Below, in pieces: positions 6,401 to 46,288 of a stretch of 64,000 bases of DNA. Source of the stretch: Candidatus Woesearchaeota archaeon (GTDB taxonomy: Archaea; Nanobdellota; Nanobdellia; Pacearchaeales; GW2011-AR1); contig CAZNIA010000001.1 in assembly GCA_964572995.1 (NCBI GenBank), positions 5,611 through 69,610 of the forward strand, in the 5' to 3' direction. Positions within the stretch are counted from its first letter, which is position 1, and each line of letters starts with the position of its first letter. Below the pieces are notes generated by a model. It made no database searches and was not told where the DNA came from. It saw nothing but the letters and a program-made list of their open reading frames with translations. The translations under genes were made by a program, and so were the position numbers.

Positions 6401-9400
6401 TATTTGATAGGACTGATTTATCCAAGCTGCACTCCTTGTAGTATTGGAAATACGAACTTCATCCATTGAACCATTGAAAAATCCTCCTGTGGCATCAACT
6501 ACTCCCTCTCCTATTTTAACTGAATAGGTGGAGGTTCCATAATTAGATGTACTTGAACCTCCTGAAACTGCTTGAACTCCGTCAAAGTAGAGTAAAAGAT
6601 TTGAACCTGTTCCAACTGCAGTGATGTGGTGCCAAGCATCTAAACTATAAGGATAAGCAACAGATGTACTTCCTCCTCCATCTGTCCAAATCATTACTGT
6701 ATTTGAACCGTCAAGAAAAAATTCAACTACATCATTCTGTCCTATTAAGCTAACTCTTGACCCCCAAACACGGGGTTTAATCCATCCTTCAATTGTAAAC
6801 GAGCCTAAGTTGCTCAAAAAATTTGCTGTTGAATTAAGCGCATCATTATTCCCATCTAATAAATCTGCTCCATCTATTTTACCTGAAGTTTTTTCATCAT
6901 TATCATATCCACTTGAGGTGAAGTTTCTTCTGTACTTGCTATCATATCTTGTTCCAGTTCCTGATTCCTCTAAATGCTGAACAGTTAAATAGTTGTTATC
7001 CCAGACGCTAATTGGATTTTGGCCTGAAGAAACATATGGATTATTATAATACATACAAATTTGATTTGTTCCTGGAACAAAAGAAGGAATATTTATCCAA
7101 ATATCTGCTTTAGAAGAAGTGTAATTTTCAACTTCATAACTTAAAGATAAATAAGTTCCTGTTGAACCACAAGAACCATTGATAAATCTTATATCATCGA
7201 AATCATTCTGCATTTCATATTCTTTTGATAAGTTAAGATAAATAGGAAAATTAGATAATAAAGTAGATCCGGAGTTGGTTATGTTTATTGTCTTTCTATA
7301 ATTCCAAGATTCGTTCCACCAATTAGGAGGATCTAAAGTAACATTAGCATTACCACATTCTCCATTTATGCAGTTTATCCTTGAGCTAAATGTGAAAAAA
7401 GAATTTTTCATTACACTTGTATCTGAATTTGGATTGAGTAGATCAATTGAAAATGAGCCCCAAGGAACTTCCCAAGTAGAGGAATTTGTTCTTGAAAGAG
7501 ACTCGCTATCATAACAGGTAGCCATTATCTGAAATTGACCAGAATCATTTACAATCAAGTCTGGATTATCTAATGTCCAATAACCATCTGAATCATCTTC
7601 AAAAGTAAAATTATTGAAGAAAGTATAAGAGTCTGGAATATTTGTTAAATTAATGGAAGCGTTGGTTACTCCTCCTTCGGGATCAGTACAAAGAACTCTA
7701 ACTCTTGTTATTGTATCTCCAAAAGCAATTGAACTGCAATTATACCAAATTCCATTCTTTTCACAATTTATTTGTCTTGGACTAGGTGGATTATTAGAAA
7801 CACTTACATTCAAAAATCTAGTCTCTGAATTTCCAGCTCTTCCTGCAGAATCAGTACAATTTACTTTCCAAGTATAAAATGAATTTGCCAGAACAAATGA
7901 AAAAGTTAAATTTACATTTTTATTTAAATTTGAAGCAGTATCTGCTATAGAGTTGTTGATTACAAGATTACAACTTTGTATTTCAGATAAGTCGGAAACA
8001 TTAAAAATAAAGTCAATTGTATTTGAATAAGTTATTGTAGTTGAATTTGAAGGAGAAATTAAACTAACTACAGGAGGAGAGGAGTCATAATAAAATACTC
8101 TTTCTTCACTCCAAGAAGAATTTGATTTTAAGTCTGTTGCTAAAACTCTCCAATAATATTTTCCTTCTTGAGTTATTCCTGTAGGAGTCACTCCTGTTAT
8201 TATTGATTGCTCGGGTATGCTGTAATTTGCAAAAACTATTGAAGAAAAATCAGAAGAATTACTTATTTGAATAGCATAATAAACTTTATCTCCTGTTGGA
8301 TCTTGAGAATTACTCCAATTAAATTCTCCTATTGAAGTTAATGCGCTGTTATTTGCAGGGAAGTTTAATTCTGGTATTTCTGGAGGAAGATTTCCAATTG
8401 TTATATTAATTGAAGAAGAAACATCACTTGAATTGAAATAATTCAAATAATTTGTATTGTTTGCATAAACAAAAAATTCCCAAACTGAACCGACTCTTCC
8501 TGTTGCATTTACTTGCCAAGTAATATTACAAGTTGTTCCTCCTTTCATATTTGCTAAGCAACTTGTACCCAAGTAATCCATAGGGTTTCTGGATATTGTA
8601 TAAAAAGGAGTATCTCCGATAATTGTTGAAATTAATCCTTTTGAAGGTTTTTCTGGGTCTCCTAAAGAATAAGTGGGCTCAACATCAATTAATTTTCTTA
8701 ACCATACATCATCGAATTCAGAAACATCCCAAGAGTGAAGAAGCATTCCTCCTGAAGAAGTTGCTGTGCTCGTTACATTAAATATTACTCCTCCATCTTT
8801 ATATGCAACTATTCTACTTCCAAAAGTATTTATTTCTAATTCATAAGGAACTCCGGCCATTGTTGAAATTGTAGTTGAACCAAGATTAGCAGTGTTGTGG
8901 TTTCCTGTTGTTAATTCCAATTGCCCATTTTGATAACCAAAAGTGTATCCTGATGTAGGGGAGAGAGCAGAACGTATTGAAACTTTTAAATCTGCATCAT
9001 CTACAACTTGATTTGCTAATACTCTTAAAGAATGATTATTTGTAGAAGTTGTTCTTGTTAAATCACTATCACCATTCATAGTATTTCTTACCCATCCATT
9101 AATTATTTCCCATGTACCTGTTGTTTCTGTCCAACCATTTCCTACTGTCCCGCTATTTGCTCTGTTGAAATTATCAAAAAAGTCAAATACTCTGCTTCCA
9201 TTATTTGGAGGGCTAGAAGCTTCAGAATTAGTGTAATACATATAATAATTATCATCATATCCTCCAGCAGGAATATTAGATTGTATTCTAAACCAGATAT
9301 TTGTTGAATCAATATTGAAAAATGTGTCGTTGAATCTGTCTAATTCTATGTTATGAGAACCGTTCCAATGCACGATTCTTAAATCATCTCCATCATCTTG

Positions 9401-15205: not shown

Positions 15206-15916
15206 TTATTCTAATTCTACCCAGAAGAAATAAGTTGTGGGATTTGTATCTAATCCATGTCCGTCTTCTAATACCATCATTTCGAAATCATGGGGGATGT
15301 TGTCAAAACCATTAGCATCGTTCAATAAAAGTGATGCAAAAACCAAACTTGGGCCGTCAGTAAGCAAGACCTCATCAAAGGTACCTACTCCTACGCTATT
15401 ATAAAGTTTTGTACTGTTACATGATCCTGTAGCAAACTGTTTACTATTTGTAAAAAACTCTGGATGGTTATTCAAATTAAATGTCTCATTCAACCCATCA
15501 GCATCTGCAGTAGATATTCCAAACATACTTTCAAAAAAAGTCATATTATTCGGTTCATCATAGCACTGAATTCCAGCCCAAGACACAGAAGATGCGTTTG
15601 AAGCATAAATTTCACCCTCTGGAGAAGCTAAGGACCAATTATACATGACATTATCATCAGAATTTGCTAATTGTATTGCCCCTGAAACATTACCAAAATA
15701 ACCTTGCCAAGACTGGGTAACTGATATTCCTGAAATAGTCAACTCGGTGATATTTCCTGCGATTGCAGAATTGTTTCCTGCATCTGATGCACTAGCTCTT
15801 GTACTAGATAAATTTGTCACAGTTGCTCCATTAGGAGCAGCAATTACTAATGAAGACAAAACAAAGATTAGAGAAACTGCTAAAATAAAATTAATTACTT
15901 TCTTCATTTTTTTCAC
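15206..15916 (-). CDS. secreted protein (236 aa), member of a 3-copy paralog family
   Basis: Signal peptide MKKMKKVINFILAVSLIFVLSSLVIAA. The TQSWQGYFGNVSG motif and the C-terminal ...YFFWVELE tail are shared with 16698..17486. Confidence 0.65.
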   Translation of the reverse strand: MKKMKKVINFILAVSLIFVLSSLVIAAPNGATVTNLSSTRASASDAGNNSAIAGNITELTISGISVTQSWQGYFGNVSGAIQLANSDDNVMYNWSLASPEGEIYASNASSVSWAGIQCYDEPNNMTFFESMFGISTADADGLNETFNLNNHPEFFTNSKQFATGSCNSTKLYNSVGVGTFDEVLLTDGPSLVFASLLLNDANGFDNIPHDFEMMVLEDGHGLDTNPTTYFFWVELE

Positions 15917-16526
15917 CTCCTTTCAGCTCTATGCTTTTTTTTAAAAAAATAGGATTTTGATAAATTGGAAAAAGAGAAGAAAAAGAAATTTTGTTTATAT
16001 CACTTAAAGAATAAAATTCAAGATTAATTTTATTAACCTGCTTTTTAGAAATATTTTCTATTGTTTGTTGTATTTTTTTATCATCCAAAAATATAATTAA
16101 AAAAGGATTTGAGTTTTTTATATCCACAAAAACAGCATGCACATTTTTGAAGTTATCCTTAATCTTATAAATAAAATCCTCTAAAAAGTACTGTAAAGAT
16201 TTATTTTCCAAAAGCCAAATTTTAAAAATTGATTTTTGATAATCCTCTAAATCTAAATTTCTTTTTTCTCCAAAACCATTAGTAAGTAAAATTGAATAAA
16301 AAATATCTTTTGAGATTGAAAAAAGATTTCTTGGTTTTCCTTTTTCAAATGCGCCTGTTTTCTCTTTTGAAACTATCTGTGCTGCTTCAAGTAATTTTAA
16401 CTGCTGACTCACAAAAGAAACTGTTGTTTTTGTCTTTTCTGCAATCTCTATAGGGGAGGATGGCTTCTCCGAGATAATCTTGAGAATTTCCCATCTCGGA
16501 GACGCCAGAAAAGAATCAAGTTCCAT
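15891..16526 (-). CDS. ArsR/SmtB-type winged-helix transcriptional regulator (211 aa) with a C-terminal extension; overlaps the start of the downstream secreted paralog
   Basis: SPRWEILKIISEKPSSPIEIAEKTKTTVSFVSQQLKLLEAAQIVSKEKTG matches the ArsR HTH pattern. The gene overlaps 15206..15916 by 26 nt. Confidence 0.6.
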   Translation of the reverse strand: MELDSFLASPRWEILKIISEKPSSPIEIAEKTKTTVSFVSQQLKLLEAAQIVSKEKTGAFEKGKPRNLFSISKDIFYSILLTNGFGEKRNLDLEDYQKSIFKIWLLENKSLQYFLEDFIYKIKDNFKNVHAVFVDIKNSNPFLIIFLDDKKIQQTIENISKKQVNKINLEFYSLSDINKISFSSLFPIYQNPIFLKKSIELKGGEKNEESN

Positions 16527-16697: not shown

Positions 16698-17486
16698 TTA
16701 CTCTAATTCTATCCAAAAATAATAAGTAGTGGTGTCAACATCTGTTAGATGTCCATTTTCCAAGACAAGCATCTCAAAATCATGGGGATTATTATCAAAA
16801 CCAAAAACATTTTCATTTAGTAAAGAAGCAAAAACCACACTATAAGTTGTTGGCTCATATAAAAGAACTTCTTCAAATTTGTTGTCTTCTCCATATCCTG
16901 CATTGGTAAATACTTGGGTATTTCTACATTCTCCCTCTGTAAACTCCAGATTGTTTGTGTAAAAAGTATTGTGACCTGAACCCAACAAAGTAAATGTCTC
17001 ATTTACTCCATCCACATCATCCTCTGCTATCCCAAACATTGCTTCTAGAATAGTCAAATTGGTTCCATGTTGATTTGTAGCTCCAGGTGTTTCAGCACCT
17101 ATATAAGTCCCATCTGCATCAAAATTAAAACATTGAATATCTGCCCAAGAAATAGAATCATTTGTAGAAGAATAAATTTCACCTTCTGGGGAAGCTAAAG
17201 ACCAATTATACATCACATTGTCTGTATTATCTGCTAACATAATTGTACCAGTAACATTCCCAAAATAACCTTGCCAAGATTGAGTTATAGAATATCCAAA
17301 AATACTTAATTCAGTAACATTTCCTGCTAAAGCAGGAATACCTGTTGCATCGTCTGGATTTGCTCTGGTAGAAGTTAAATTTACTACATTTGCCCCAAAA
17401 GGTTCAACTGCTAAAACCCCATAAGTGCTAAATAAAAAAATTAAAACAGCAACGAGTAAACATATGAATTTCATCCTCTTTACCAT
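16698..17486 (-). CDS. secreted protein (262 aa), paralog family member
   Basis: Signal peptide, AVEPFGANVVNLTSTRANPDDATG...TQSWQGYFGNVTG, and a ...YYFWIELE C-terminus. Confidence 0.65.
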   Translation of the reverse strand: MVKRMKFICLLVAVLIFLFSTYGVLAVEPFGANVVNLTSTRANPDDATGIPALAGNVTELSIFGYSITQSWQGYFGNVTGTIMLADNTDNVMYNWSLASPEGEIYSSTNDSISWADIQCFNFDADGTYIGAETPGATNQHGTNLTILEAMFGIAEDDVDGVNETFTLLGSGHNTFYTNNLEFTEGECRNTQVFTNAGYGEDNKFEEVLLYEPTTYSVVFASLLNENVFGFDNNPHDFEMLVLENGHLTDVDTTTYYFWIELE

Positions 17487-17530: not shown

Positions 17531-18394
17531 TTAATTAATTTCTCCTAATAAAGTCTTAAGTCTTTCTATATCCCTTGACAAAGGGCTTTTTTTCTGAATT
17601 TCTTTTAAGGCTTCTGTATACTTCTGCACTTTATCAAGAAGCTTATCTAGCTCTTCTTTTTCTGCAAAATTAAGGGCTTTTGTTTTAAGGTAATCTATGT
17701 CTTTTGAATTTTGTTCTATGCTTGCTTTTGATTCTTGTAATTGAGAATTAAATGTATCTAAATCCTGTATTTTCTTTCTCATATCGCTGTAAATTGTTTG
17801 GACTTTATCTGTTTGAATGTTAATTGTTCCCTCTATCTTTTTTATTCCGATGAGCTCTTTTTTTATTTCTTCACTTAATTTAATTATTTCTTCTATTCCT
17901 CTAAAAAAGCTCATCTTACGACGCATATCTTTTAACTCTTCCATAACTTGATCTATTATTGCTTCATTACCTTCTAGATTTGCTTTCAAAGCTTCTATCT
18001 TAACGTTCTGTCTTTCTAAATCCATCATAAATTTATCTGGCTTTATTGATTCAACTAAATCTATTGCCTTTACAGCCTTTAGTTCCATTGTTTGAATTGT
18101 TCTATCTCTATCCAATATCATAGACCTCAATTCTCCTATTTGTTCGCTAATCCGAGTAAATCTTTCAGTAAAAGATTTTCTTACTTCTTGAAATGCTTCC
18201 TGCCCTGCTTTCAATCTATCAATTTCTGTAGATAATCTAAGAATATTCTGAGAATCAGAAGAATTTGAAGAAACTAATGGTTTTTCTTCTTGTGGGGGTT
18301 TTGTGACTTGTTCTTGACCTTCTTCTTTGGTTTCACCTTCTGAATCTGCCCCTTCTTCTCCTTCTTTTTTCTTGGATTTTAAAAAATCAAACAT
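17531..18394 (-). CDS. acidic coiled-coil protein (287 aa)
   Basis: Heptad-rich and E/K-rich with no TM segment. The 8-nt overlap with the upstream ORF suggests an operon. Confidence 0.5.
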   Translation of the reverse strand: MFDFLKSKKKEGEEGADSEGETKEEGQEQVTKPPQEEKPLVSSNSSDSQNILRLSTEIDRLKAGQEAFQEVRKSFTERFTRISEQIGELRSMILDRDRTIQTMELKAVKAIDLVESIKPDKFMMDLERQNVKIEALKANLEGNEAIIDQVMEELKDMRRKMSFFRGIEEIIKLSEEIKKELIGIKKIEGTINIQTDKVQTIYSDMRKKIQDLDTFNSQLQESKASIEQNSKDIDYLKTKALNFAEKEELDKLLDKVQKYTEALKEIQKKSPLSRDIERLKTLLGEIN

Positions 18395-18716
18395 TTAATA
18401 TCTCCTCTTCTAGTTTATTTAATAAAGAATTTATTTTTTTAAAATCTTTCTCATTAAAGTCTGTTCTTAATAAAAGTATCTTTGAATGGATTATATTTGA
18501 TTTTACTGTTAATAGATGCTTCATTTTTTTGTCTTTTAATTTTTTAAATTTTAAATCCAAATTAAGTTGTCTTAATTTTAATTCAGATATTAAAGTATTT
18601 TTTAAAATTTCCAATCTTTCTTTTTTATCTCTTATCCTGTTTATCTTCTTGTGTTTATCCTCATCAATAAAAGAAGAAGAAAACTTCTTCATCCTCTTTA
18701 ATTCTTTCATAAACAA
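18387..18716 (-). CDS. small K/E-rich coiled-coil protein (109 aa)
   Basis: ORF in operon context with low-complexity coiled-coil composition. Confidence 0.35.
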   Translation of the reverse strand: MFMKELKRMKKFSSSFIDEDKHKKINRIRDKKERLEILKNTLISELKLRQLNLDLKFKKLKDKKMKHLLTVKSNIIHSKILLLRTDFNEKDFKKINSLLNKLEEEILNV

Positions 18717-18773: not shown

Positions 18774-21700
18774 TTATTCATTCTTTTGTTTCTTCTGTTC
18801 TTCTTTCTCATAAACTTCTCTTGCTTTCTTTGCTTCTTCAACTGATTTTTGTATTTCTGCTGTATCAAGCAATTTTTTCTCTACTTTCTTTGGCTTCTTT
18901 CCTATCTTTTCCCACTGCTTTTGTAATCTTGGCCCAAGGCCTTCAACATAAATATCTACGACAGAAAAATTACCTGTCATGAGCTTATCTTTAATTAATT
19001 TTAATTCCATCTTTAAATCAAAGATATCTACTTTTTCTTTTTCAAGTTGATTTATTTGGTTTTCAAAATCATCTATTATATCATTGTATTTATTGTATTT
19101 TTCTAGTTCCTCATCTGAAAGTCTTCTTGTGTTGTGAAGAATCGGTCTAAAGTTTACAAAGTAAGGTTTACCCTTGTTGTATTCTGCATTCTGGAACATT
19201 GCAACCCCGACTTCGGCTCTTACCAAAGATTTCAAAAATTCCTCCCCATATTTTGTTTTGATTCTCTCTAAATCAGATTCTTCTATTGTTCTTGTTTGAA
19301 TTTCTGTGTTTATATTTGCTTTAACTTCTCCGACAAAATCGCTTAATACCTGTGAAATTAAAACCACTCCCATACCCCACTTTCTGAATTCTCTACAAGC
19401 TCTTTCGATTTGCAAGAAACCTTCTCCACTTCCACCAAATTTTGAAAGCAATCTATGGACTTCGTCAAAAACAAGAAGAACTTTTAATTCCTGAGCTTCT
19501 TTTGGATCTGATTTGAATATTTGTCTTATTACACTTGCAATAAACATATCTATATCTTTTGGATCAAGTTTATTTAATGCAAATATTTGTATCTGTCCTG
19601 GATGAATATACTTCTCTATTTCTATTACTTCTCTTGCATGTGAAATTTGTCGTATGTTTCCGGGGAATGCTCTTGCATCAGTTGATTTTAACCCAAATTT
19701 AGGATAAAATGAAATCATTTTTTTATCTTCGCATTTTCTTAATAATCCAGACCACTGAGCGGTTGGATCAAATACAATTACAGCAACATTTTTTAAAAGA
19801 GCCTCTTCTACTAAAACCTGCGCAGAAATACTTTTACCCATACCTGTAGCTCCTGCAACAATCGCGTGAGTTTTCAATCTTTCTGGTTCTAAATATACTG
19901 GATGCTTAGATTCAGCAATCAAACCCAATTTAAAGAAACTTTTATCTGCTTTTGGCAATGTGGACAAGTCAAGAGAGATACCATATCTTTTTCTTTTTTC
20001 CTTGTATCTTTTATAAATAAATATATTTAGTAAAACAAAACTAATAAATGAAAGTATTGCAAAAAATACCCAAAGAGGTATTCCTAAAAAAGAATAAAGA
20101 TAAATCGGTCTACGTACTGAAAAAGGGGCCGTAACACTTGAAGAAAAACCAAGATATTTTGCATTAACTACAAACAAATAATCCCCTTCTGAAAAATTAG
20201 AAGGAATGTTTATATGGTCTACTATAGATAATGCCTTCCTTATTTCAACTTCTTGTATTTCTCTATGGTAAACTGTTGAATCTTCTTCTCCAATAATAAG
20301 TTTTTCTAGAACAACCTTGTATTCTTGATCTATTAAAAGATTTTGAAGATTAAGCTTGTAATTAAGATTCTCTCCTGGATTCACAATATTCTTAAACAAA
20401 TCTATAGATAATAAAAGGGTCTCTATTGGAAGTCTGTTCTCAATAATTTTTACTTTTACAGGTATTTCTTTTTCAACATCTCCGGATAACTTTAAAATAC
20501 CTTCATAAGTGCCGATTGGTTTTGTTCCATAAAAAGTTATTTTTATTTCTTCTCCTTTTCCTGGTTCAAGTATCAAAGCATCTCTATCTAACTTTACGAA
20601 ATCGCTTATATCTGAAGATAATGAAATAAGAAGATTCATATTTGTAGTTTTAAAATTATATATTCCGATAGTATCATCTACGAATGTATTCTGTCTTATT
20701 TCTTTGAAGATGTCTTTTGTACTTATCCAATAATCTTCCCCTGTTCTTTGTATTTCTTCTATAATCTTTTGTATCTCTTCTCCTGGCTCTTCTTCATATG
20801 GGCCTGTTGGATAAGGATTATTTGTTTGACCTAAATTAACTAAAGTCATAGTTATATTGTGATTGAAATTGGTTGTATTCTGATAGAAGAATAATATTGC
20901 ATAATAATTGTTAAAACCCAATGTTGTAGCAATTATTGGATAATTTTGTGGAATAATCTCCGGAGTAAGGGAATAATAACCATTCTCATCAGTAACTGTT
21001 GATTCTCCTGCAAGGTAAATATTTACTCCGTCCAATGGATTGCCTAATGTATCATTTACATATCCCCACACAAATGGGAAAATTACTTCTCCTGTGCTTG
21101 GAGTAGCCGAATGCATAGTTATATTTTTGTAAATCATATAATTTGAGAAGTTAACTGTGATATTTGAAAAATACTCGTCATACCCTTCTCCATATGCTAT
21201 TAAATTATGGCTTCCAGGCATTAAGTCTAAAGTAATATTGTATATCCCATTTGAATCAGTAGTATAATTTGATCCTGCAATTACAACAGTTATATTTTCT
21301 AATGGTACCCCGTTGGTATCCTTAACATAACCATGAACTGTTGTAGCAATAACTTCCCCCATTCCTCCTTCTGGACACTCATCGTAAGGATCTGTGAAAA
21401 AATAATATCTTTGTGTTGAAGAAGGCAACATAGGTAAAAGCATCTGAAAGTTAACTGTTGAATCTGGACTATACCCTTTTTGTAATTCTTCTATGTGTGT
21501 TACATAAACTAAATTTCCTTCTCCGTCTACCAAAATACCCAAATCAAAGACCCCATTTTCTCCATCCCATCTGTAAGTATGTGTTGAAGGAATGTTTGTT
21601 ATATTTGTAGGCCCCACCATAATCCACATAGTGTCCAAAAAAGTATTAGAAGCACAATCCACACCTGTGCTACACCCTGTCCAAGCATCTATTTGAGAAG

Positions 21701-22136
21701 TGTCCGCAGGGGTCAGAGATTCAAAATCTATTGTTGAAGATGTTGATGCATAAATTTCTCTTCCACCTACAGCATCCTGTTGCATGCAATCAAAAAATAG
21801 TCCTGCAGAAGTTATTTCTCCTGAAGTAATATCCTCAAATATTTGCTCTGTATATCCTGGAACTCTTAAAGCTAAACCATATAATCCATGCCAATAAAAA
21901 GTTTGAAATTTTAATGTTACATTTAATTCGGAAATATATCCTGCTTCTGAAGGGATATAGGTTAAAAATCCTGTAGAAAGTATATTGGTTATAAACATTA
22001 TACATATTATAAATGAGGAAAGCAAAGCAAAAGTCAATAATAAAAACTCCACTAAATCTTCTTTTCTTTTATTTTTTAATTCCTTATTTGCAATAACTAT
22101 TGTATTTTGAGAAGCTCTTTCCTCTTTTTTATTCAT
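18774..22136 (-). CDS. membrane-spanning FtsK/HerA-superfamily (VirB4/DUF87-like) P-loop ATPase (1120 aa). It has an N-terminal signal-anchor, a ~650-aa extracellular region with two carboxypeptidase-regulatory-like (transthyretin-fold) domains, a central TM helix and a C-terminal cytoplasmic ATPase
   Basis: Walker A is AIVAGATGMGKS and Walker B is VLLVFDEVHRLL; an R...SQ segment (RKWGMGVVLISQ) is also present. The TM helix is IPLWVFFAILSFISFVLLNIFIY. CarboxypepD_reg-like motifs are VHGYVKDTNGVPLENITVVIAGSNYTTDSNGIYNI and VWGYVNDTLGNPLDGVNIYLAGESTVTDENGYYSL. Confidence 0.8.
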   Translation of the reverse strand: MNKKEERASQNTIVIANKELKNKRKEDLVEFLLLTFALLSSFIICIMFITNILSTGFLTYIPSEAGYISELNVTLKFQTFYWHGLYGLALRVPGYTEQIFEDITSGEITSAGLFFDCMQQDAVGGREIYASTSSTIDFESLTPADTSQIDAWTGCSTGVDCASNTFLDTMWIMVGPTNITNIPSTHTYRWDGENGVFDLGILVDGEGNLVYVTHIEELQKGYSPDSTVNFQMLLPMLPSSTQRYYFFTDPYDECPEGGMGEVIATTVHGYVKDTNGVPLENITVVIAGSNYTTDSNGIYNITLDLMPGSHNLIAYGEGYDEYFSNITVNFSNYMIYKNITMHSATPSTGEVIFPFVWGYVNDTLGNPLDGVNIYLAGESTVTDENGYYSLTPEIIPQNYPIIATTLGFNNYYAILFFYQNTTNFNHNITMTLVNLGQTNNPYPTGPYEEEPGEEIQKIIEEIQRTGEDYWISTKDIFKEIRQNTFVDDTIGIYNFKTTNMNLLISLSSDISDFVKLDRDALILEPGKGEEIKITFYGTKPIGTYEGILKLSGDVEKEIPVKVKIIENRLPIETLLLSIDLFKNIVNPGENLNYKLNLQNLLIDQEYKVVLEKLIIGEEDSTVYHREIQEVEIRKALSIVDHINIPSNFSEGDYLFVVNAKYLGFSSSVTAPFSVRRPIYLYSFLGIPLWVFFAILSFISFVLLNIFIYKRYKEKRKRYGISLDLSTLPKADKSFFKLGLIAESKHPVYLEPERLKTHAIVAGATGMGKSISAQVLVEEALLKNVAVIVFDPTAQWSGLLRKCEDKKMISFYPKFGLKSTDARAFPGNIRQISHAREVIEIEKYIHPGQIQIFALNKLDPKDIDMFIASVIRQIFKSDPKEAQELKVLLVFDEVHRLLSKFGGSGEGFLQIERACREFRKWGMGVVLISQVLSDFVGEVKANINTEIQTRTIEESDLERIKTKYGEEFLKSLVRAEVGVAMFQNAEYNKGKPYFVNFRPILHNTRRLSDEELEKYNKYNDIIDDFENQINQLEKEKVDIFDLKMELKLIKDKLMTGNFSVVDIYVEGLGPRLQKQWEKIGKKPKKVEKKLLDTAEIQKSVEEAKKAREVYEKEEQKKQKNE

Positions 22137-25965: not shown

Positions 25966-28900
25966 CTAGGCTTGAGTATATAATGAATTTTGTGTAACTG
26001 AAACTTCGTAGCCTTTTTCTGGTTCAATTATAAAATTGGTTCCTATATAAGGAGGTATCCAAGGGACAGGCGAACCTGTTGAAATGTATCCCTGGGATGT
26101 TTGGTTAAATGAATTCCAATTAGTTACAGCATCTGAGTAAGAAACAGAAGAAATTAAGTTATATGCATTTGTTTTAGAAGAGTTATAATATAAAGAAACC
26201 CAGTTTTTTCCAAAAGAAGTTGAATTCTTTATTAAATCCACCTCTACTGGAGATTTTACTGCTCCTACAAGGCTCCAATTTGTAAAGATTGGAGAAGTTA
26301 AGTTGAGATTCATCTCATAACCTCTGCCGTCCTCTAGGTTGAAATTGCAGTTATTGAGGGTACATCCCGGATAATCTGGACAAGAGAAATTATTACATGT
26401 AACTCTTTTTTGTATTGTGCTATTCCACATTGTAAAGGAAGTTATATTGTTTATCTCGCCAAGAGCTTCTTTTGAATCTGTAATATTTGTTTCAATGTAT
26501 AAACCCATCCAGTTTCTGGTATTTATTGAGGGCTTGCTTTGTATATAATACACTGTTTTTCCAAAAGTAGAATTAGTAAAATTTTCTGCTATAGGGTTCC
26601 AAGAAGAAATTCTATAAAACCTTCTTCTACTCTGATTAGCATTTGAGTCAGTATAATTTAAGTTAAATGTCTCATTCAGCAATGCAAATGCAATTGAAGC
26701 ATTCTCTGTGTAATATATTCTATATTTATATGCATGAGCAGATGTGTTCCAGGATAAAAAAATATCTCCTGTCCCGTCATTCTTTGTTTGAGAAATATCT
26801 GTTAAAGGGGAATCAGGAGGTAAGAAAGCTGCAAAAGTGAAATTAGTTGAATTAAATGCAAAATTTCCTGAATTATCAAAACATAAGATGTTCCATAGAT
26901 AATATCCGTCTGTTACAACATTCTTATTTGAAAAATTAAGAGAAGCCCCTTTTTCAGGATAACTTGTTGTTTCATTTGCGTGCCATATACCATCCCAGGT
27001 TCCGTAAAGAGTACAATTTACCACATCATTAGAATCATTCACAGAATAATTTAAAAATGGAATTAAATAACCTGTAAAGTTTGAATTATTTTCTGTAAGT
27101 AAATTTACATTTGGAGGGATTGTATCCAATGTTATCTTTCTTGTTTCTGTGGTGTTTGAATAATTTACAACATCAAAAATAGTTACATTATAATAATAAG
27201 AACCCTCTGGAAGATTTGTCCAATTTATTATTCTTCTTGAATCTGTATAGGTTGAAGAATTGTAAACTGTATAATTAGAATAATATAAATTAAATGTGAT
27301 ATTTACCTCATTCTCTTCTATAACAGACGTATTTACATATACCCAAGTTTGGGATTTGTTTGAAGTATCATTTTCTGTCGATCCTGAATAACTTATCAGA
27401 GGGTAAGTGCTATCAAAAGTGAAAGTAAAATTATTGAGTGCCCAACCATCATATCCCAAAGAGTCATTACATTTAATATTCCATAAATAAACTCCATCTT
27501 CATACAAAGCAAGTGAAAAGTTTATTGCATAGTATAGTTCTTCATCGCCTTCATTATAACTGGGTTCAGGATAAATTAATTTTCTTATCCAGACATCATC
27601 AAATTGTTCTGTAGCCCATGCATGAAGCCCTGATGTCCCTGAAGCATAAGTTGAATCTGTTAAATTAAATATTAAATTTCCATCTTCATAAGCAACAATT
27701 CTATTTCCAAATGTATTTAATTCTAATTCATAATCTGTTCCAACAGAAGGGGAAAATCCATAACTTCCTAAATTAGAAAGTGTGTGTCCGGTTGAAGATA
27801 ATTGTAAATAGTTATTTTGATAACCATAAACATATCCATTTCCACTAGCAGAAGGCATTCTTGCCATTAATTTCCAATCTGAATCACTTGTCTCATGATT
27901 TACAATTGCTCTTATAGAATGATTTCCTGTAACTGTTGTTCTTGTTAAATCACTATCCCCATCTAGAGTATTTCTTACTCTGTTATTTAATATTGCCCAA
28001 GTTCCCCTTGTCTCTGTCCAGCCATTCCCAACTGTATCACTATTTGGTCTGTTAAAATCCTCAAAAAATTCAAAAACATTACTTCCATTATTTTTAGGAT
28101 TTGAAGCGTCTGAATTAGAATGATAAATATAATAATTATCGTCAAATTTTCCAGCAGAAATAGGGGCTTGAATTCTAAACCAAATTTCTGTACTGGGGTC
28201 ATCAAATGCTGTTGAATTATATCTATCTAATTCAATATTTTGAGAGCCGTTCCAATAAACAATTCTTAAATCATCTCCATTATCTAAGAAATCAGAACCC
28301 GTTGTATCCAAAGTTAATAACATTGAATAATTCTGCTCAAGGGTATACAAACTTGGATTGGTAATATTTATAAGTTTTCTCTTGCTCCAGCCTGAACTAT
28401 ACCAATTTATTTCTTTTGTCTGATTATTGTGCCATCCTCCATTCCAGGTTCCATATAGTGAACAATAACTTATTCCGTCTGCATCTGAGAAATTAAAATG
28501 AAATTCCTCATCATCAAAACTTGTAAAGTAAGAATTATCTTCCGGAGAGAATAAACTTACAGCAGGACCATAGATTGAAATTGAAAAAGTTCTCTTTGCT
28601 AGAGCAATATTTCCAAAAGTATCATTAGAATAAAAGTAAAGTGTATGAGTTGCTTCTGTTGTGTCAAAGGTAGTATTTGTTCCGCAGGATATTGATTGGT
28701 TTGCTTGATTATCCAAATTCCACCAACACATACTTAAACCCACAACATTATCATAAATTGTATAATTAAGGGGCAGACTTGTATTATATGCATAAACTTT
28801 TGGTTCTGGAGAGATTATAATAACAGTGGGTCCTGTATTATCTAATCCAATTTTTCTTGTGGATGTAAAATTAATATTATAAGCGAGGTCAAGAATAGTC

Positions 28901-31900
28901 ACATTGTAATAATAAATTCCGTCTGGAAGAGAAGTGAAATTGATAAACCTTCTTGAATCATTGTATGAGCTTGAATTTACTAAAATATTCTCTGAATTAT
29001 AAAGATTAAAAGTGATATTGGCAAAATTGCTTTCTACTATTGAGGTGTTTATATAAATCCAGGTTCTTGAAAAGTTTGTATTATCGTTTTCAGTAGGGAA
29101 AGTGTAGGAAATTTGAGGGGTTGTTCCATCATAATAAAAACTATTATTTGATGAACCAAAAGTGTTTCCTGCAATATCAGAAACTTTGTAATTCCAGCTG
29201 AAAAAACCTTCAGAAGGGAGATTATAAATAATTCCTTTCAATAAATTTGTTCCTGAAATATTTTGAATAGTTTGATTAATTAAATGGGTTTGATTATACA
29301 CAGAAAGAGTTAAATTAGATAATTTAAGATTGTCTGTTAAGTTTACTGTAAGATTTTGTGAAGATGAATTTACATAAGAGTTGTTTAGAGGGGAGATTAG
29401 GGTTGCATTTGGAGGAGTTGTATCTAACCCTATTTGTCTTGTTGAAGTTGAATTTACATTATAAGCTAAATCTACAAGAATTACATTATAATAATAAATT
29501 GCGTCTGGGAGATTTGTCCAGTTAATTTCTCTTCTTGAATCTGTATAAACTGTAGAGTTTACAAGAGTTCCATTTAAATAATTAAGTCTGAATGTTATGT
29601 TTGCTTCATTTAATTCTATAACTGAAACGTTAACATAAATCCAGTTTCTTGAAAAGTTTGAATAATCATTCTCTGTAAGAAGAGAATATACTATTTGAGG
29701 GTAAGTGGTGTCTATTGTAATTGTATTATTTTGTGTTTGAAAGCTATTTCCTGCCAAATCAAATATCTTATAAAACCATTTAAAAATTCCATCATATAAA
29801 AAGTTGTAAACTATTCCTGTAATTATATCTGTTCCTGAGATATCTTGAGTTGTTTCGTTTATTAAATTGGTTTCATTGTATAAAAATAAAGTCATATTTG
29901 ATAATCCTAGATTATCATTTGCATTAACTGTTAAATTCTGTAAAGTGGAATTTGCATAAGTTTCATTCTCTGGAGAAACTAAGGTTGCATTAGGGTTATT
30001 TGTATCCAGAGTAATTGCTCTAGTTAATGTTAAAAATTCCCCATCAAGATCATCAAAAAGAGTTACATTATAATAATATAGTCCTTGCTGAAGATTTGTC
30101 CAGTTGATTTCTCTTCTTGAATCTGTATAAATAGATTCATTTACTAAACCGGAAAGATTATACAATCCAAATGTGACATTTATCTCTTCATTTACATTTG
30201 ATGTGGAAGTGTTTACATAAACCCAATCTCTTGAAAGACTTGCAAGATTCTCTTCTGTTGGAAAAATAAAGTTTATACTTGGAAGAGTTAAATTCAAATT
30301 TATTTTTCTTGTAGAAGTTGAATTGGAAAGATTAACAAAATCAAAAACAGTGATATTATAATAATAAAATCCTTCTTCTAAATTTGTCCAGTTAATTGTT
30401 CTTCTTTTATCTAAATAAGTTGAAGAATTAATCAAATTATGAGCTGAGTTGTATAAATTAAAGGTGATATTTGCTTCATGCTCTTCTATAACTGAAGTAT
30501 TTACATAAATCCATAATCTTGCAAATTTAGTATTGTTATTTGCAGTCCCTATTCCAAAATCCACAAATGGAGGCAAAGTATCCAGTGTTATTTTTCTTGT
30601 TGAAGTAGTATTTGAAAGGTTTACCATATCAAAAACTGTTACATTGTATAAATAAGAATTGTCTAATAAAGAAGTAAAATTAATTGAGGTTCTTGTTGTG
30701 TCTGTGTAAGTAGTAGAGTTTACAAGAGTGTAATTAGAAAAATATAAGTTAAATGTTATATTTTTGGGGTTTAATTCTGTAATTGAAGTATTAATGTAAA
30801 TCCAGTTTCTTGAAAAATTTGCATAATTATTTTCTGTTGGAGAAGAATAATCAATTAAAGGTTTGGTTGTATCCAGTGTTATCTTTCTTGTTGAAGTAGT
30901 ATTTGAAAGATTTACCATATCAAAAACTGTTACATCGTATAAATAAGAATTGTCTAATAAAGAAGTAAAATTAATTGAAGTTCTTGTTGTATCTGTGTAA
31001 GTAGTAGAGTTTACAAGAGTGTAATTAGAAAAATATAAGTTAAAGGTTATATTTTTGGGGTTTAATTCTGTAATTGAAGTATTAATGTAAATCCAATTTT
31101 GGCTTTTATTTGAACCATTTATATCTGTGGGATAAACAAAATCTATTTGAGGGAATGTATTATCTAAAACGAATGTGTTATTTATAAATGCAAATGCTGA
31201 GCTTCCTAAAGTGTCATTACATCTAACGTTCCAAAGATAGTTTCCATCTACTGAAAGATTAACTAAGAAGGATAAAGAAGGGGATGTCGTCTCTCCTCCT
31301 AAGGTATAAAAAGAAGAAGGATTATTTTGATTTTGGAAAGAAGCATTAATCCAAACAGGGCTTCTTGAGGTATTTGAAACACGAATTTCATCAAAAGTAC
31401 CATTAAAATATCCTCCGCTTGCATCAACAACTCCTTCTCCAATCTTCACAAAATAAGCTGAAGATCCATAACTAGCGGTACTACTGCCTCCACTTGATGC
31501 TGGAGAACCATCAAAATATAAAGTCAAATTTGTTCCTGTACCTACTGCTACAACATGATGCCAACTATTTACTCCATATGTATAAGAAGTAGAAGTGCTT
31601 CCTCCTCCGCTTGTCCAAATCATTACTGTGTTTGTTCCATCTATAAAAAATTCCGTAACATCATTTTGCCCATACAAACTTACTCTTGAGCCCCAAGCCC
31701 TAGGATAAATCCATCCTTCCAATGTAAAAGAACCTAAATTACTCATAAAATTACTTGTGGAATTAAGCATATCGTTGCTTCCGTCCAAATTATCTGCTCC
31801 ATCTACCTTTCCTGTTATTGCTTCGTCTCCTTCATATCCTGCTGAAGTCATATTTCTACCATTAGAAGTGCTATCAACCCTGCTTCCTGTTCCTGTCTCT

Positions 31901-42047: not shown

Positions 42048-43931
42048 ATGAATAGAAAAAATATTTTAATTGTAACTTTATTTCTTTCTTTAGTTATACT
42101 TCTAATGAATATTATTTCTGCAGCACATTACATAGTGGGTATTGTGGAAGATGCAAAAGATGGAACCAGTTCTAATGATCATACAATTTTATTATGGAAT
42201 CCTTCTGTTGGAATATTTGAAAATCTCACAGACCTAATTGGACCAAATGGAAACTCTCATGTGAACAATATTTATATGATTGATTGTGAACTTCTTCCAA
42301 GTGGATGCAATATAGGAGAGAATCTAACTTTAAAGGTAATAAATAATGGGGAGAATTATATATCTGAAGAAAAAAATGTGACTGTGACTGGTGCCGGATA
42401 TGACCTTGTTAGCAATATAACATTAAACTCCCCTCCTGATGTAGGCCTAATTTTCCCTTACTCTTTTGCGAATATCTCTAGTTCAGAAATTAATTTTAAC
42501 TGTTCTATCTTTGACTTTGATTTAAACTTAAAGGAAGCGAGTTTATATGGAACTTGGGATGGAGGATGGAATTTAAATGAAACTAAGGGTATTATCTCAG
42601 AAGGAGGATTTATTACATTTAATAAAAATCTTTTGGAAGGCTTGTATGAATACAATTGTATGGCAACGGACAACCTTTTAACTTCATCCTTTGCAACAGA
42701 AAATATTACTTTCACTATTGATTTAACAAAACCGAATATTGAATCTATCTTTGTAAATTCAACTTATTCATGCGGCCAATCAAATTTTGTCAGAGTAAAT
42801 TGTACAACTTATGATACTTTACTTAATGTAGATAAGGTTATTATTCAAACTATTTCTCCTTCTGAAACAAAAAATTATACTGCCTCTCTTCTTACAAGTA
42901 ATACTTATTATTCAGATATTTTGTTGGATGAGGTTGGAGGCTGGACATTTAATTGTATTTCAAATGATACTGCTGGAAACGTAAACAATTTAACTTCTCA
43001 AATAGTGAATGTCTTCTCTAATTCTCCTGAATTATATATCAATTTTACAACTATTAGGTTAAGTGAAGAAAAACCTATAGAAAACCAAGAAATAAAAATT
43101 AATGCAGTTATTGAAAATTTTGGTTGTTCAATTGCTGAAAACGTATTGGTTAGTTTTTTTGAAGGCGACCCTTCTGAATCTGGAGATAATATTTATAACT
43201 ATACTTTAAACATAAGTTCTCTTTCAGCTTTTCCTGCAAATATTTCATGGATTGCTAAAATAGGTCCAAACAATATATTTGTTATTGCGGATTATGATAA
43301 TAAAATAAATGAAGAAAACGAGACTAATAATAAAGCAAATAACACCTTTTCTATAAATGCCTGGCAAGATATTTATGGAAATATTAGCTTAGATAAAATA
43401 ATTGGGGGGGATAATATTAGCATAAAGAAATGGTTCAATGAGAGTCAGCTTGAAGGCCATGTTTTCATAACAGATTCTGAATGCGAAGTGGATTGGCTTT
43501 CCTTGCAAGCCCTGGGGAAGTCTAAATCTGGTGAAGATAGTTCTAATGATTTTTTAGAAATTGATGAAGTATTAAATATGATTAATTTTGAAGATTCAAT
43601 ATCTAATGTCTTTTCAGATAATCAAAATCCTAAGAACACAAAAAATATGTTAATTTATCAAAAAGAGATAGAAAATGTTCCAGTCATAAAATCGACTAAT
43701 AATTCTAATTTCATAACAGGGCTCCTATGGGATTTTTCTGATGATAGAGAAGGAGAAAATGGAGAATTTGATACAATAGATAAAGAAGATATAGTTTTTG
43801 TTGCAGAAGTCAATAAAAGTTCTGAAGGAAATTATGGACTTTACGATTATGAGATAAAAATACCTTCAAGATTAAGAGAGTATAATAATTTAGATAATGA
43901 AGAGGTGTATCTTTATTACAATTTAAATTAA
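42048..43931 (+). CDS. secreted protein (627 aa). Its N-terminal domain is paralogous to 37628..38827, and its C-terminal CARDB-like module plus conserved tail is shared with giant protein 1
   Basis: The C-terminal ~250 aa (from ...EIKINAVIENFG to SFFEGDPSESGD, and STNNSNFITGLLWDFSDD...YGLYDYEIKIPSRLREYN) aligns with the giant 1 C-terminus (...STNNSNFVTGILWDFSDD...YGTYDYELRVPARLREYN). Confidence 0.7.
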   Translation: MNRKNILIVTLFLSLVILLMNIISAAHYIVGIVEDAKDGTSSNDHTILLWNPSVGIFENLTDLIGPNGNSHVNNIYMIDCELLPSGCNIGENLTLKVINNGENYISEEKNVTVTGAGYDLVSNITLNSPPDVGLIFPYSFANISSSEINFNCSIFDFDLNLKEASLYGTWDGGWNLNETKGIISEGGFITFNKNLLEGLYEYNCMATDNLLTSSFATENITFTIDLTKPNIESIFVNSTYSCGQSNFVRVNCTTYDTLLNVDKVIIQTISPSETKNYTASLLTSNTYYSDILLDEVGGWTFNCISNDTAGNVNNLTSQIVNVFSNSPELYINFTTIRLSEEKPIENQEIKINAVIENFGCSIAENVLVSFFEGDPSESGDNIYNYTLNISSLSAFPANISWIAKIGPNNIFVIADYDNKINEENETNNKANNTFSINAWQDIYGNISLDKIIGGDNISIKKWFNESQLEGHVFITDSECEVDWLSLQALGKSKSGEDSSNDFLEIDEVLNMINFEDSISNVFSDNQNPKNTKNMLIYQKEIENVPVIKSTNNSNFITGLLWDFSDDREGENGEFDTIDKEDIVFVAEVNKSSEGNYGLYDYEIKIPSRLREYNNLDNEEVYLYYNLN

Positions 43932-46288
43932 TCTTTCTTAACGGGCATTGTACTTTTAATAAACTGATCTATTATAATAGCAATCTTGGACTTATCCTTT
44001 TCTGCTGCTATTTTTTTAGATAAATCTTGTGATACCTGTTCAGCCCATTTTGCAATATCATTTTTATTTGAATTTACATGTAGAAGAAATATTTCCTGAT
44101 CTAATCCAGGCAGAGTTTCTTTTAATTCTTTAAGTGTAGATATCATTATTCCATTATCAAATGTAAGAGGTTTAAGTATTTTGGTTCCAATATTTTCTAC
44201 TTCTGCTTTTTTCTCTTCTTTTTTTTGTTTTTTCTGCTCTTCTTTTTCATAAACAGCCCTTGCTTTCTTTGCTTCTTCTACTGATTTCTCTATTTCTGAT
44301 ACATCTAATAACTTCTTCTCTACTTTCTTTGGTTTCTTTCCTATTTTCTCCCATTGTTTTTGTAATCTTGGACCTAGTCCTTCTACATAAATATCAACAA
44401 CAGAGAAATTTCCCGTCATCAATTTATCTTTAATAAGCTTTAATTCCATCTTGAAATCAAAGATGTCTATTTTTTCTTTATCTAACTGTTCAACTTGGTT
44501 TTCAAAATCATCAATTAAATCATTATACTTATTGTATTTCTCTAATTCTTCATCTGAAAGCCTTCTTGTATTATGAAGAATTGGCCTAAAATTAATAAAA
44601 TATGGTTTACCCCTATTGTAAGAAGTATTCACAAACATTCCTACCCCTACTGAAGCTTTAACTAGTGATTGTAAAAATTCTTCTCCATATTTTACTTTTA
44701 TTCTTCCTAAATCGCCTTCATCTCTTGTCCTCATTTGAATCTCTGTGTTTATATTTGCTTTTATTTCTCCTACAAAATCACTTAATACCTGAGAGACCAA
44801 CATTACTCCTATTCCCCACTTTCTAAATTCTCTACAAGCCCTTTCAATTTGCAAAAAACCTTCTCCATTTCCACCAAATTTTGAAAGCAACCTATGGACT
44901 TCATCAAAAACAAGAAGAACTTTCAAATCCGGTGTTTCTTTTGGATCTGACTTAAATATTTGTCTTATTACGCTTGCAACAAAAATATCCATATCGTTTG
45001 GATCTAATTTGTTTAATGCAAAAATCTGTATTTGTCCTGGATGAATGAATTTTTCTATTTCAATTATCTCTCTTGCATGAGATATCTGACGTATATTCCC
45101 AAAAAATGCTCTTGCATCTGTTTGCTTCAATCCAAAATTAGGATAATAAGAAAGCATTTTTTTGTCTTCACATTTTCTAAGCATACCTGACCATTGGGCT
45201 GTGGGATCAAAAACAATCACTGCTACATTTTTCAGAAGAGCTTCTTCGATTATTACTTGCGCTGCAATACTTTTGCCTCCACCTGTTGCTCCTGCAACAA
45301 TTGTATGTGTCTTAAGTTTATCTGGTTCTAAACAAGCCTTGAGCTTAGTCTCTGCAATTTTTCCCAAGATTAAAACTTCTTTGCTTGGTAAAGGTAATTT
45401 TTTTGTGTCCAACTCCATCCTATATTTTTTTGAAAGCTTAATGTGTCTTCTTATCAACAGATAAACAATTAAAAAAAGCAAGATAAACCCCAATCCGGAA
45501 AACAAAGCCCAAAGAGGAAGAAATCCAAAAATAACTCTGCTAAAAAATGGCTTTTTAATTATAAATTGGCTTAATGAAAAAATTGTTTCTCCAGAATAAG
45601 TTGCAAAAGTTTGTAATAAATATTCTCCTTTATCTGCCTGTTCTGGTATCTCGAATTTTCTAACAAGATAAAATGAACTTGTAAAATTAAATGATTCTTC
45701 TCCTAAGAAAAAGGATTCATTTTTTGAATTATTCAAATAATATCTAAGGGTTAAATTTTCTATTGGTCCTGATTTTATCCTATTTAAATAAATTTTAAAT
45801 CTCAATCCTTCATTTAATTTAAATGATTTTTTAAATGGTTCAGAATCTACAAAAAAAAGAGGGCTCAAATCAGAATCAACGATTCTTAATGTTATAGGAA
45901 GTTTATCTGTGATCCCTCCTGAAAGAGATAATTCTCCTGTATAATTTCCTATCTCTCCCCCTTTTATATAAAAATAGAAAGAAGTACTATTTTTTGGCGA
46001 TACCTCTATCCCAGAATAATCAAATTCTATGAAATCTGCTGCTGGCCCAGATACAGAAAAACCTACAGAAATTGATTGTGAATTTAAATTTTCTATTGTA
46101 ACAAAATCCTGGAACAACGTCCCTAATGCAACAGTTCTATCTATTTTACTTCTAGAAATAGAATAATGTTCTTTCTTTATTTCTTCTCCAAATGCAGAAT
46201 CTTCTGCAGATAAAAGAACTAAACTTAAATAAAATAAAATAACAAAAACGATACAGAATAGAGAGATATTTCTTTTAATTGAATTCAT
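43928..46288 (-). CDS. second membrane-spanning FtsK/HerA-superfamily (VirB4/DUF87-like) ATPase (786 aa). It has an ~245-aa extracellular N-terminal region, one TM helix and a cytoplasmic ATPase with a C-terminal extension
   Basis: Walker A is TIVAGATGGGKS and Walker B is VLLVFDEVHRLL. TM helix VIFGFLPLWALFSGLGFILLFLIVYLLI. The ATPase core is about 85-90% identical at the amino-acid level to 18774..22136. One ~85-aa stretch, ELEKYNKYND..PRLQKQWEKIGKKPKKVEKKLLD, is identical but for two conservative substitutions (I/L, V/I). Confidence 0.8.
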   Translation of the reverse strand: MNSIKRNISLFCIVFVILFYLSLVLLSAEDSAFGEEIKKEHYSISRSKIDRTVALGTLFQDFVTIENLNSQSISVGFSVSGPAADFIEFDYSGIEVSPKNSTSFYFYIKGGEIGNYTGELSLSGGITDKLPITLRIVDSDLSPLFFVDSEPFKKSFKLNEGLRFKIYLNRIKSGPIENLTLRYYLNNSKNESFFLGEESFNFTSSFYLVRKFEIPEQADKGEYLLQTFATYSGETIFSLSQFIIKKPFFSRVIFGFLPLWALFSGLGFILLFLIVYLLIRRHIKLSKKYRMELDTKKLPLPSKEVLILGKIAETKLKACLEPDKLKTHTIVAGATGGGKSIAAQVIIEEALLKNVAVIVFDPTAQWSGMLRKCEDKKMLSYYPNFGLKQTDARAFFGNIRQISHAREIIEIEKFIHPGQIQIFALNKLDPNDMDIFVASVIRQIFKSDPKETPDLKVLLVFDEVHRLLSKFGGNGEGFLQIERACREFRKWGIGVMLVSQVLSDFVGEIKANINTEIQMRTRDEGDLGRIKVKYGEEFLQSLVKASVGVGMFVNTSYNRGKPYFINFRPILHNTRRLSDEELEKYNKYNDLIDDFENQVEQLDKEKIDIFDFKMELKLIKDKLMTGNFSVVDIYVEGLGPRLQKQWEKIGKKPKKVEKKLLDVSEIEKSVEEAKKARAVYEKEEQKKQKKEEKKAEVENIGTKILKPLTFDNGIMISTLKELKETLPGLDQEIFLLHVNSNKNDIAKWAEQVSQDLSKKIAAEKDKSKIAIIIDQFIKSTMPVKKD

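Follow-up and report, generated by a model that had tools for sequence, protein, structure and literature searches.

How can two ATPases whose outer parts diverged long ago still end in nearly the same protein? This question is raised by a stretch of 64,000 nucleotides from Candidatus Woesearchaeota archaeon (assembly GCA_964572995.1, contig CAZNIA010000001.1, positions 5,611 to 69,610 of the forward strand), the whole of which is called the window here. Two HerA/FtsK-type ATPase genes, A1 and A2, lie 25 kb apart in it, and it is their C-terminal helical segments that are so alike. We consider this similarity, with a probability of roughly 0.8, to be the legacy of long-lasting and domain-restricted concerted evolution by gene conversion between the two paralogs, with a last event that is old in this genome. 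Much of the evidence comes from relatives of the two genes, all of them in metagenome-assembled genomes (MAGs), some from co-assemblies.

Structurally, A1 and A2 follow one plan, a secreted ectodomain, a single transmembrane (TM) helix and a cytoplasmic P-loop ATPase. The A1 ectodomain is large (685 aa) and carries two CarboxypepD_reg domains, and its TM helix is the boundary between ectodomain and cytoplasmic ATPase. In A2, an Ig-like ectodomain of about 255 aa is followed by the TM helix, the ATPase, a three-helix segment, a Lys/Glu-rich helix and a small C-terminal domain. The genes belong to two separate surface-protein loci, each with its own conserved synteny. The parts needed below are as follows, where p1 and p2 number the residues of A1 and A2.

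18774..22136, minus strand: A1, the LONG paralog, 1120 aa (open reading frame call)
20007..20081, minus strand: A1 TM helix, about p1 686-710 (hydrophobic stretch in the translation)
19137..19901, minus strand: A1 RecA-like ATPase core, p1 746-1000, Walker A GATGMGKS, Walker B LLVFDEVH
18858..19136, minus strand: A1 C-terminal helical segment, p1 1001-1093, homolog of the three helices predicted in A2
18777..18857, minus strand: A1 Lys/Glu-rich tail, p1 1094-1120 (alignment)
43928..46288, minus strand: A2, the short paralog, 786 aa (open reading frame call)
44576..45340, minus strand: A2 RecA-like ATPase core, p2 317-571, Walker A GATGGGKS
44297..44575, minus strand: A2 C-terminal helical segment, p2 572-664, counterpart of 18858-19136
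43931..44215, minus strand: A2 C-terminal extension without A1 counterpart, p2 692-786, 95 aa

The similarity of the two proteins is far above chance (tblastn E = 0). Residues p1 686-1120 and p2 257-691 align without a gap, and the homology stops at the A1 stop codon. Over p1 946-1120, the stretch that a first-pass annotation of this DNA had singled out, 91 codons are identical, 58 synonymous and 26 amino-acid-changing, with 85% protein identity. Restricted to p1 1001-1120, the last 120 residues, the counts are 69, 40 and 11, and identity is 91% in protein and 83% in nucleotides. The longest perfect run between A1 and A2 spans 50 residues (p1 1042-1091, KMELKLIK...KKLLD, 18864..19013, minus strand) and falls inside the stretch that is a conversion hot spot in sister genomes (p1 about 1016-1090, or 18867-19091). 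The first-pass annotation was right that the two C-terminal ends are nearly identical in protein. Its figure of about 15% for the DNA difference was too low, since 18860-19200 and 44299-44639 differ at 66 of 341 positions (19.4%), and the differences are not almost all synonymous as it had supposed: about two thirds (45 of 67, in codons p1 979-1093) lie in codons that stay synonymous.

Nei-Gojobori counts over the last 120 residues give a proportion of synonymous differences (pS) of 0.67, a proportion of non-synonymous differences (pN) of 0.059 and a ratio of non-synonymous to synonymous change (omega) of 0.036. The corresponding values for the core (p1 746-1000) are 0.61, 0.098 and 0.085, with 82% protein and 79.5% nucleotide identity. 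Within the window pair, the C-terminal omega is below that of the core. The helical segment taken alone (p1 1001-1093) has 91% amino-acid identity to A2, a pS of 0.70 and an omega of 0.031. Of 82 identical residues, 48 (0.59) have the same codon in both genes, where 43.5 (0.53) are expected from independent draws from the codon usage of the family; therefore, the synonymous sites of the pair are saturated. Codon sharing between A1 and A2 equals that between orthologs of different species. A recent duplication is ruled out by the nucleotide difference of 19%, the synonymous saturation and the ectodomains, which are about 21% identical. A constraint at the nucleotide level or from an overlapping gene is ruled out as well, for the synonymous sites vary freely and the opposite strand holds no meaningful open reading frame.

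The paralogy itself is ancient. A protein search returned 614 relatives, all in DPANN-type MAGs, whose cytoplasmic parts are 60-96% identical, and the entire cytoplasmic module evolves slowly, not just its C-terminal end. A scan of species-representative genomes gave 53 loci, which fall into two architecture classes. The LONG class, which includes A1, has its Walker A near residue 760 and a length of about 1070-1270 aa, while the short class, which includes A2, has its Walker A near residue 330 and a length of about 730-830 aa. Orthologs of A1 of about 1120 aa with conserved synteny were found in at least nine MAGs, and each class sits in its own conserved neighbourhood, distant genomes included. 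Ectodomain identity is 37-47% among LONG genes, 32-37% among short genes and 17-28% between the classes. It is from this grouping of the ectodomains by class, together with the synteny of each locus, that the great age of the paralogy follows. Both classes are present in nine genomes. A first tree had indicated a young, lineage-specific duplication, which was misleading, as the search had started from A2 and homogenisation has affected the core itself over deep time.

Purifying selection offers the simplest account of an old pair that is still alike. The first-pass annotation had proposed it in a strong form, and in that account the two copies would have diverged independently, with no exchange of DNA, under selection on a shared interaction surface. 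The window pair, saturated at synonymous sites and devoid of a conversion tract, fits this account, as do its omega of 0.03, the high-confidence helices and the 17 segment residues that are invariant across 88 family members. The selection is real, but an exceptional constraint on the segment is not. In 10 of 11 ortholog comparisons, conservation is lower in the segment than in the core (sign test P = 0.012). Across 697 cross-genome pairs, the segment has a mean identity of 69% against 76% for the core, and it is the lower of the two in 90% of the pairs. Close orthologs have the same omega in segment and core, and the fraction of invariant columns is 0.70 in both alike. Additionally, independent divergence should leave paralog-specific residues. 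Residues diagnostic of LONG versus short occupy 27 of 255 core positions and none of 110 in the segment plus tail (P = 5e-5; 0 of 93 in p1 1001-1093 and 0 of 17 in the Lys/Glu-rich tail). The TM region (p1 686-745) is strongly paralog-specific, with 26 diagnostic sites in 60. The lower conservation between orthologs, the equal invariant fraction and the lack of diagnostic sites mean that the segment is not exceptionally constrained; instead, the paralogs were never allowed to differentiate there. One of the 27 core sites lies in the Walker A motif itself (A1 p1 766, window about 19839-19841; A2 p2 337). This motif is GATGMGKS throughout the LONG genes of the close clade, whereas the short genes all have GATGGGKS.

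Paralogs of one genome are, in this segment, closer to each other than to their orthologs. Segment identity within a genome is 83-99% in nine of nine genomes, against means of 62-75% to orthologs outside the clade, and it is also above the best short-class ortholog outside the clade (70-75%) in all nine. Across four deep lineages, p1 1001-1093 is 91, 99, 83 and 94% identical within genomes, against 60-75% in every cross-genome comparison, orthologous or not. The core does not behave in this way, except in the genome JASFEO (97%). Purifying selection alone is contradicted by this pattern for the family already, by the same-genome pairs that join in trees with full bootstrap support and by near-identical DNA tracts in five other genomes, and we consider it an unlikely account.

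These tracts were found by comparing the sliding-window nucleotide identity of same-genome paralogs with a mean of about 0.82 across genomes. Stretches 91-100% identical within p1 1016-1105, most of them centred on 1016-1075, occur in five sister or distant genomes.

CAZSPD (L047/L009): p1 1016-1060, nucleotide identity 0.97-1.00
CAYWFA (L001/L010): p1 1016-1075, nucleotide identity 0.93-0.98
CAYQKM (L003/L012): p1 1046-1105, nucleotide identity 0.91-0.96
JAIORZ (L036/L029): p1 1016-1075, nucleotide identity 0.96-0.97
CAZRBZ (L018/L026): p1 1031-1075, nucleotide identity 0.94-0.98

The tracts are short, about 100-230 nt, and both flanks of every tract are paralog-specific. Nucleotide identity reaches 100% over 30 codons (p1 1016-1045) in the CAZSPD pair. 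A GENECONV-style run test gave P = 2e-4, 2e-4 and 0.03 for L047/L009, L001/L010 and L003/L012; none of 49 cross-genome pairs fell below 0.01, and a second alignment agrees. Pairs with young events have 30-51 consecutive matching polymorphic sites and a pS as low as 0.31-0.42. Bootstrapped nucleotide neighbour-joining trees of p1 1001-1105 tell the same story, as the split between LONG and short, supported at 99% in the core, has 0% support in the segment. Three same-genome pairs join there at 100%, and protein trees agree. The first-pass conclusion that there was no recent gene conversion holds for the window pair, where no tract is found; as an argument against conversion as such, the pattern is not supported, given the clear tracts in five other genomes.

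Could the two paralogs have changed in parallel without any exchange of DNA? Both might bind one fast-evolving partner and accept the same replacements in each genome. Residues shared in a genome-specific manner, such as YIEGIAPR, SELKKS and REIF in L003 and L012, would suit such co-evolution. Single-copy genes for cytoplasmic coiled-coil proteins lie directly downstream of LONG in all genomes, and the window pair has kept its protein identity with diverged codons. However, parallel selection does not predict the drop in pS of the young pairs, nor that young events are alike in DNA down to the synonymous sites, both in the 30 perfect codons of L047/L009 and in the long runs of matching sites. 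Co-evolution without exchange is, for these reasons, a very unlikely explanation.

Assembly has to be weighed also, for short tracts in MAG contigs, several of them from co-assemblies, could arise when paralogous sequence is collapsed or bubbles are popped. This explanation, or that of a recent duplication, is scarcely credible. The nucleotide difference, synonymous saturation and diverged ectodomains of the window copies speak against both, and so does the synteny of both loci across many independent assemblies. The paralog-specific flanks argue against an artefact, and no chimeric LONG/short gene was seen. The concerted pattern is present in protein despite differing codons, and it extends to the whole 255-residue core of JASFEO; assembly can create neither. 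In that Pacearchaeota MAG (L013 with P0055), the LONG and short genes lie about 7.5 kb apart and are 97% identical in the core and 99% in the segment at the protein level, with ectodomains 26% identical. The contrast indicates that conversion has recently covered the whole cytoplasmic module, and the identity of the core means that larger tracts also occur.

The history of the window pair is older. No conversion tract was detected in its C-terminal segment: two run tests gave P = 0.89 and 0.53, bootstrap support for the pair in the segment tree is 0%, and its number of nucleotide differences ranks 9 of 54 LONG x short pairs (median 61). The family alignment likewise holds no genome-specific residues shared by A1 and A2. 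Within the close clade, all LONG and short C-terminal segments cluster together, separate from those of other lineages; therefore, the last homogenisation on the lineage of the window probably took place at the stem or in the early radiation of this clade. One other region of the pair has lowered synonymous divergence.

19362..19586, minus strand: A1 Walker-B region, p1 851-925; A2 counterpart at 44801-45025

Here pS is 0.30-0.36, and 49 of 64 codons are shared against a background of 0.62 (P = 0.01, uncorrected). With 28 nucleotide differences here, the window pair is the most similar (rank 1) among the 54 LONG x short pairs of the close clade, and similarity over this stretch is also elevated within the JAIORZ and CAZRBZ genomes. 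The run test is not significant and the bootstrap is 5%. This is suggestive of an older conversion tract in the window genome, and possibly of a second hot spot.

The course of events that we favour would be as follows. LONG and short would have diverged long ago in their ectodomains and TM regions, and their cytoplasmic ATPase modules would occasionally exchange DNA by ectopic gene conversion between the paralogs. The C-terminal helical module, p1 about 1016-1090, would be exchanged most often, so that it would evolve in concert within each genome and drift between genomes. In the window genome the last homogenisation would be old, the synonymous sites would since have become saturated, and ordinary purifying selection, with an omega of about 0.03 in module and core alike, would have kept the proteins 91% alike. 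Conversions would persist in the module because the paralogs are, we infer, functionally interchangeable there, and those in the core would be removed by selection, since they wipe out residues that are specific to one paralog. The interchangeability may reflect one shared docking partner, a shared oligomer interface, or simply the lack of a paralog-specific function in this stretch. It is also possible that conversions were favoured, since both motors would need to fit a shared partner or each other.

Several points weigh against concerted evolution by conversion as told here. The window pair bears no direct DNA trace of it, and its history is read from the relatives and from the absence of paralog-specific residues. 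The hot spot may be purely mechanistic, with long identical runs in AT-rich Lys/Glu codons near the 3' end of the homology seeding recombination. The trees are neighbour-joining trees of short segments (225-315 nt), with synonymous saturation even between orthologs, and for this reason the conversion events cannot be dated. Very short identical tracts in MAGs could in principle be affected by simplification of the assembly graph; the amino-acid-level pattern with diverged codons, seen in L003/L012, in the whole domain of JASFEO and in the window pair, is immune to this.

What the module is structurally was examined with an AlphaFold2 model of A2 285-786, with a predicted local distance difference test score (pLDDT) of 89, and with a second model. 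Both predict three consecutive helices, at A2 579-604, 610-624 and 628-649, with pLDDT above 90. The first-pass annotation had raised the idea of a coiled coil; in the models, short turns separate the three helices, and they do not form a single long coiled coil. The next element is a Lys/Glu-rich helix, long but modelled with lower confidence, and then comes the small alpha/beta domain of A2 (about 75 residues, pLDDT about 90). In a fold search the three-helix module alone had no match with E below 1, and it has no PDB or Pfam counterpart. Matches to it fall into 327 clusters at 50% identity, and among the matches listed the module lies within a few hundred residues of the C-terminus in the longer proteins, the longest being 6253 aa. 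Two giant examples have DUF87 just upstream of the module and lectin or Ig-like ectodomains. The module is an integral part of a family built from ectodomain, TM helix and ATPase. The ATPase with its three helices also ends giant proteins of 2400-6253 aa (P0139, P0170, P0200 and others) with lectin or Ig-like ectodomains, and P0170 ends in a DUF835 domain in addition. It is unusual for a motor ATPase to be joined covalently to an ectodomain of giant size.

The extension of A2 consists of the end of the Lys/Glu-rich helix and the small domain, with the motif PLTFDNG...HVN..KNDIA.W and no Pfam or PDB match. The first-pass annotation had described diverging tails, with an extra extension of about 110 aa on A2. 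The extension is indeed present, at a measured 95 aa, but extra it is not: the small domain also occurs in LONG-class genes of other lineages, and the sequence comparison is therefore better read as its loss from the clade of A1 than as a gain by A2.

The module could have a wider role. A tentative and rather doubtful proposal is that, in a cell-surface machine of DPANN not described before, it forms the common surface for docking or ring formation, with the conversions selected for compatibility. HerA/FtsK-type motors, tethered by one TM helix to adhesin-like ectodomains, may then form mixed hexamers or act on a shared partner. Candidate partners, judged by gene context, are the single-copy coiled-coil genes downstream of LONG (in the window, 109 aa at 18387-18716 and 287 aa at 17531-18394) and, in the short locus, the helical cytoplasmic tails of three membrane proteins of 676, 679 and 1106 aa. 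If this proposal is true, the conversion hot spot marks a functional interface. In any event, the result marks out a stretch of about 75-90 residues, in a DPANN ATPase family that is very widespread and uncharacterised, as still interchangeable between otherwise differentiated paralogs, and the three-helix module is the most useful pointer available to a possible shared partner or oligomer interface. There is also a warning for conclusions drawn from one genome. Two paralogs with nearly the same protein and saturated synonymous sites look like a case of plain purifying selection; comparison with relatives reveals the recurrent conversion, and dN/dS of paralogs within one genome can therefore mislead.

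The surroundings of the two genes are those of a chromosome. The window has a G+C content of 29.5%, its right end carries genes resembling Orc1/Cdc6 and two DNA polymerase D subunits (by eye from the translations), and it is syntenic with contigs, as long as 358 kb, of MAGs that bear the label Woesearchaeota, Pacearchaeota or Nanoarchaeota. The replication-type genes and the synteny with large contigs identify it as a chromosomal piece of a DPANN archaeon.

Surface-protein genes are abundant here. In the short-ATPase locus, 37684-38004, in a 399-aa gene (37628-38827, plus strand), and 42116-42436, in a 627-aa CARDB gene (42048-43931, plus strand), encode about 107 residues after the signal peptides with 92.8% DNA identity over 321 nt. 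Of 106 codons in this shared region, 85 are identical, 13 synonymous and 8 non-synonymous, which indicates a much younger exchange or duplication. The 627-aa gene (43669-43931, plus strand) also has a C-terminal domain of about 85 aa in common with a 3944-aa gene (419-700, minus strand). This domain has the motif NSTNNSNF.TG.LWDFSDD...GEFD..KED.VF...YG.YDYE...P.RLREYN and could be a sorting or anchoring module. Two giant surface-protein genes, at 419-12253 (3944 aa) and 25966-37008 (3680 aa), have many diverged repeats in common. Internal repeats occur too, such as the pair 33620-34202 and 34352-34934 (583 nt, 95%).

In the short-ATPase locus, the tails of three single-pass membrane proteins (40016-42046, 46285-48324 and 48651-51971) have a similar helical motif, E-A-x-x-x-Y/F-x-x-I/A-K-E-x-Y-x-x-L/P..., of which the 1106-aa protein apparently has two copies. 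By regular expression and by eye, these cytoplasmic tails are candidate docking tails for the ATPases. Near A1, an ArsR/HVO_A0114-like helix-turn-helix gene lies between the genes of two secreted paralogs of 236 and 262 aa (15206-15916, 15891-16526 and 16698-17486), an arrangement that is kept downstream of LONG in distant genomes. A third copy of the secreted protein starts at the left edge of the window (1-224), with 79% nucleotide identity to 17221-17447.

How do these ATPases compare with known systems? Pfam assigns DUF87 to both proteins at 43 bits (cut-off 23.2), and to A1 also HerA_C at 37 bits and CarboxypepD_reg at 64 bits; DUF87 and HerA_C exceed their cut-offs. Foldseek with the A2 model has HerA 4d2i as best match (E = 1e-10), followed by TcpA and FtsK motors down to 1e-7, and the best PDB sequence matches of the window ATPases are HerA proteins. 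With the Walker motifs GATG(M/G)GKS and LLVFDEVH, these matches place both proteins, at the level of sequence and fold, in the FtsK-HerA superfamily of P-loop ATPases. Within it, no curated family could be assigned, and NCBIfam and PADLOC gave generic P-loop matches only.

HerA proper, the archaeal DNA-end-resection translocase (PDB 4d2i, 9x1l), has the same RecA-like P-loop core with Walker A and B. However, it begins with a cytoplasmic HAS-barrel, in the place of which the window ATPases have a secreted ectodomain and a TM helix, and their C-terminal three-helix module is without a PDB counterpart. It was ruled out by this N-terminus, by scores of 24-32 bits against cut-offs of 800-970 for the NCBIfam HerA equivalogs, and by the lack of a match to NurA, Mre11 or Rad50 among the neighbouring genes scanned, about half of the large open reading frames of the window. 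As for the anti-phage HerA systems (Sir2-HerA, DUF4297-HerA and others), the PADLOC models HerA and mad8 match at 48-59 bits, in the P-loop core only, and an effector gene was not recognised. Both the membrane anchor and the chromosomal location, syntenic and among genes for surface proteins, speak against a role in defence.

FtsK/SpoIIIE, the coupling proteins TrwB, TcpA and VirD4, and the Ced ATPases CedD and CedB likewise join an N-terminal anchor to a cytoplasmic FtsK-HerA motor. Their anchor is polytopic, whereas the window family has a single TM helix and a large ectodomain, giant in some relatives. An FtsK/SpoIIIE translocase, which would end in a gamma domain (a KOPS-binding winged helix), was rejected because of a sub-threshold Pfam score for FtsK_SpoIIIE (17-18 bits against 24), the single TM helix and the unmatched small C-terminal domain of A2. 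CedD (NF053655) is the best NCBIfam match and was rejected too: the two proteins score 36.5 and 40.6 bits where the cut-off is 600, and Ced-like neighbours were not recognised. Conjugation, pilus and relaxase genes were not recognised nearby either, among scanned neighbours that had no usable Pfam annotation.

The process, long-lasting and domain-restricted concerted evolution by conversion, is already known; the ATPase family is uncharacterised, and literature searches found no paper specific to it in DPANN or Pacearchaeota. Recurrent concerted evolution over long times has been described for 26 prokaryotic genes (PMC6053082). The closest case is that of mtrA-1 and mtrA-2 of Methanococcales and Methanomicrobiales, paralogs with different membrane parts and long-lasting conversion restricted to one domain (PMC4632066). 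Those two genes belong to one operon, whereas the window ATPases lie in separate loci. In mtrA the whole soluble domain is homogenised, whereas in the ATPase family the most strongly homogenised part is a sub-domain of about 90 residues. The window family differs from mtrA and the 26 genes also in being a HerA/FtsK-type ATPase of DPANN, seen here in a genome without a recent tract. The likeness lies in the pattern itself: in mtrA, as in the window family, ancient paralogs of the same genome differ in their outer parts, share a homogenised soluble domain, and are closer there to each other than to their orthologs.

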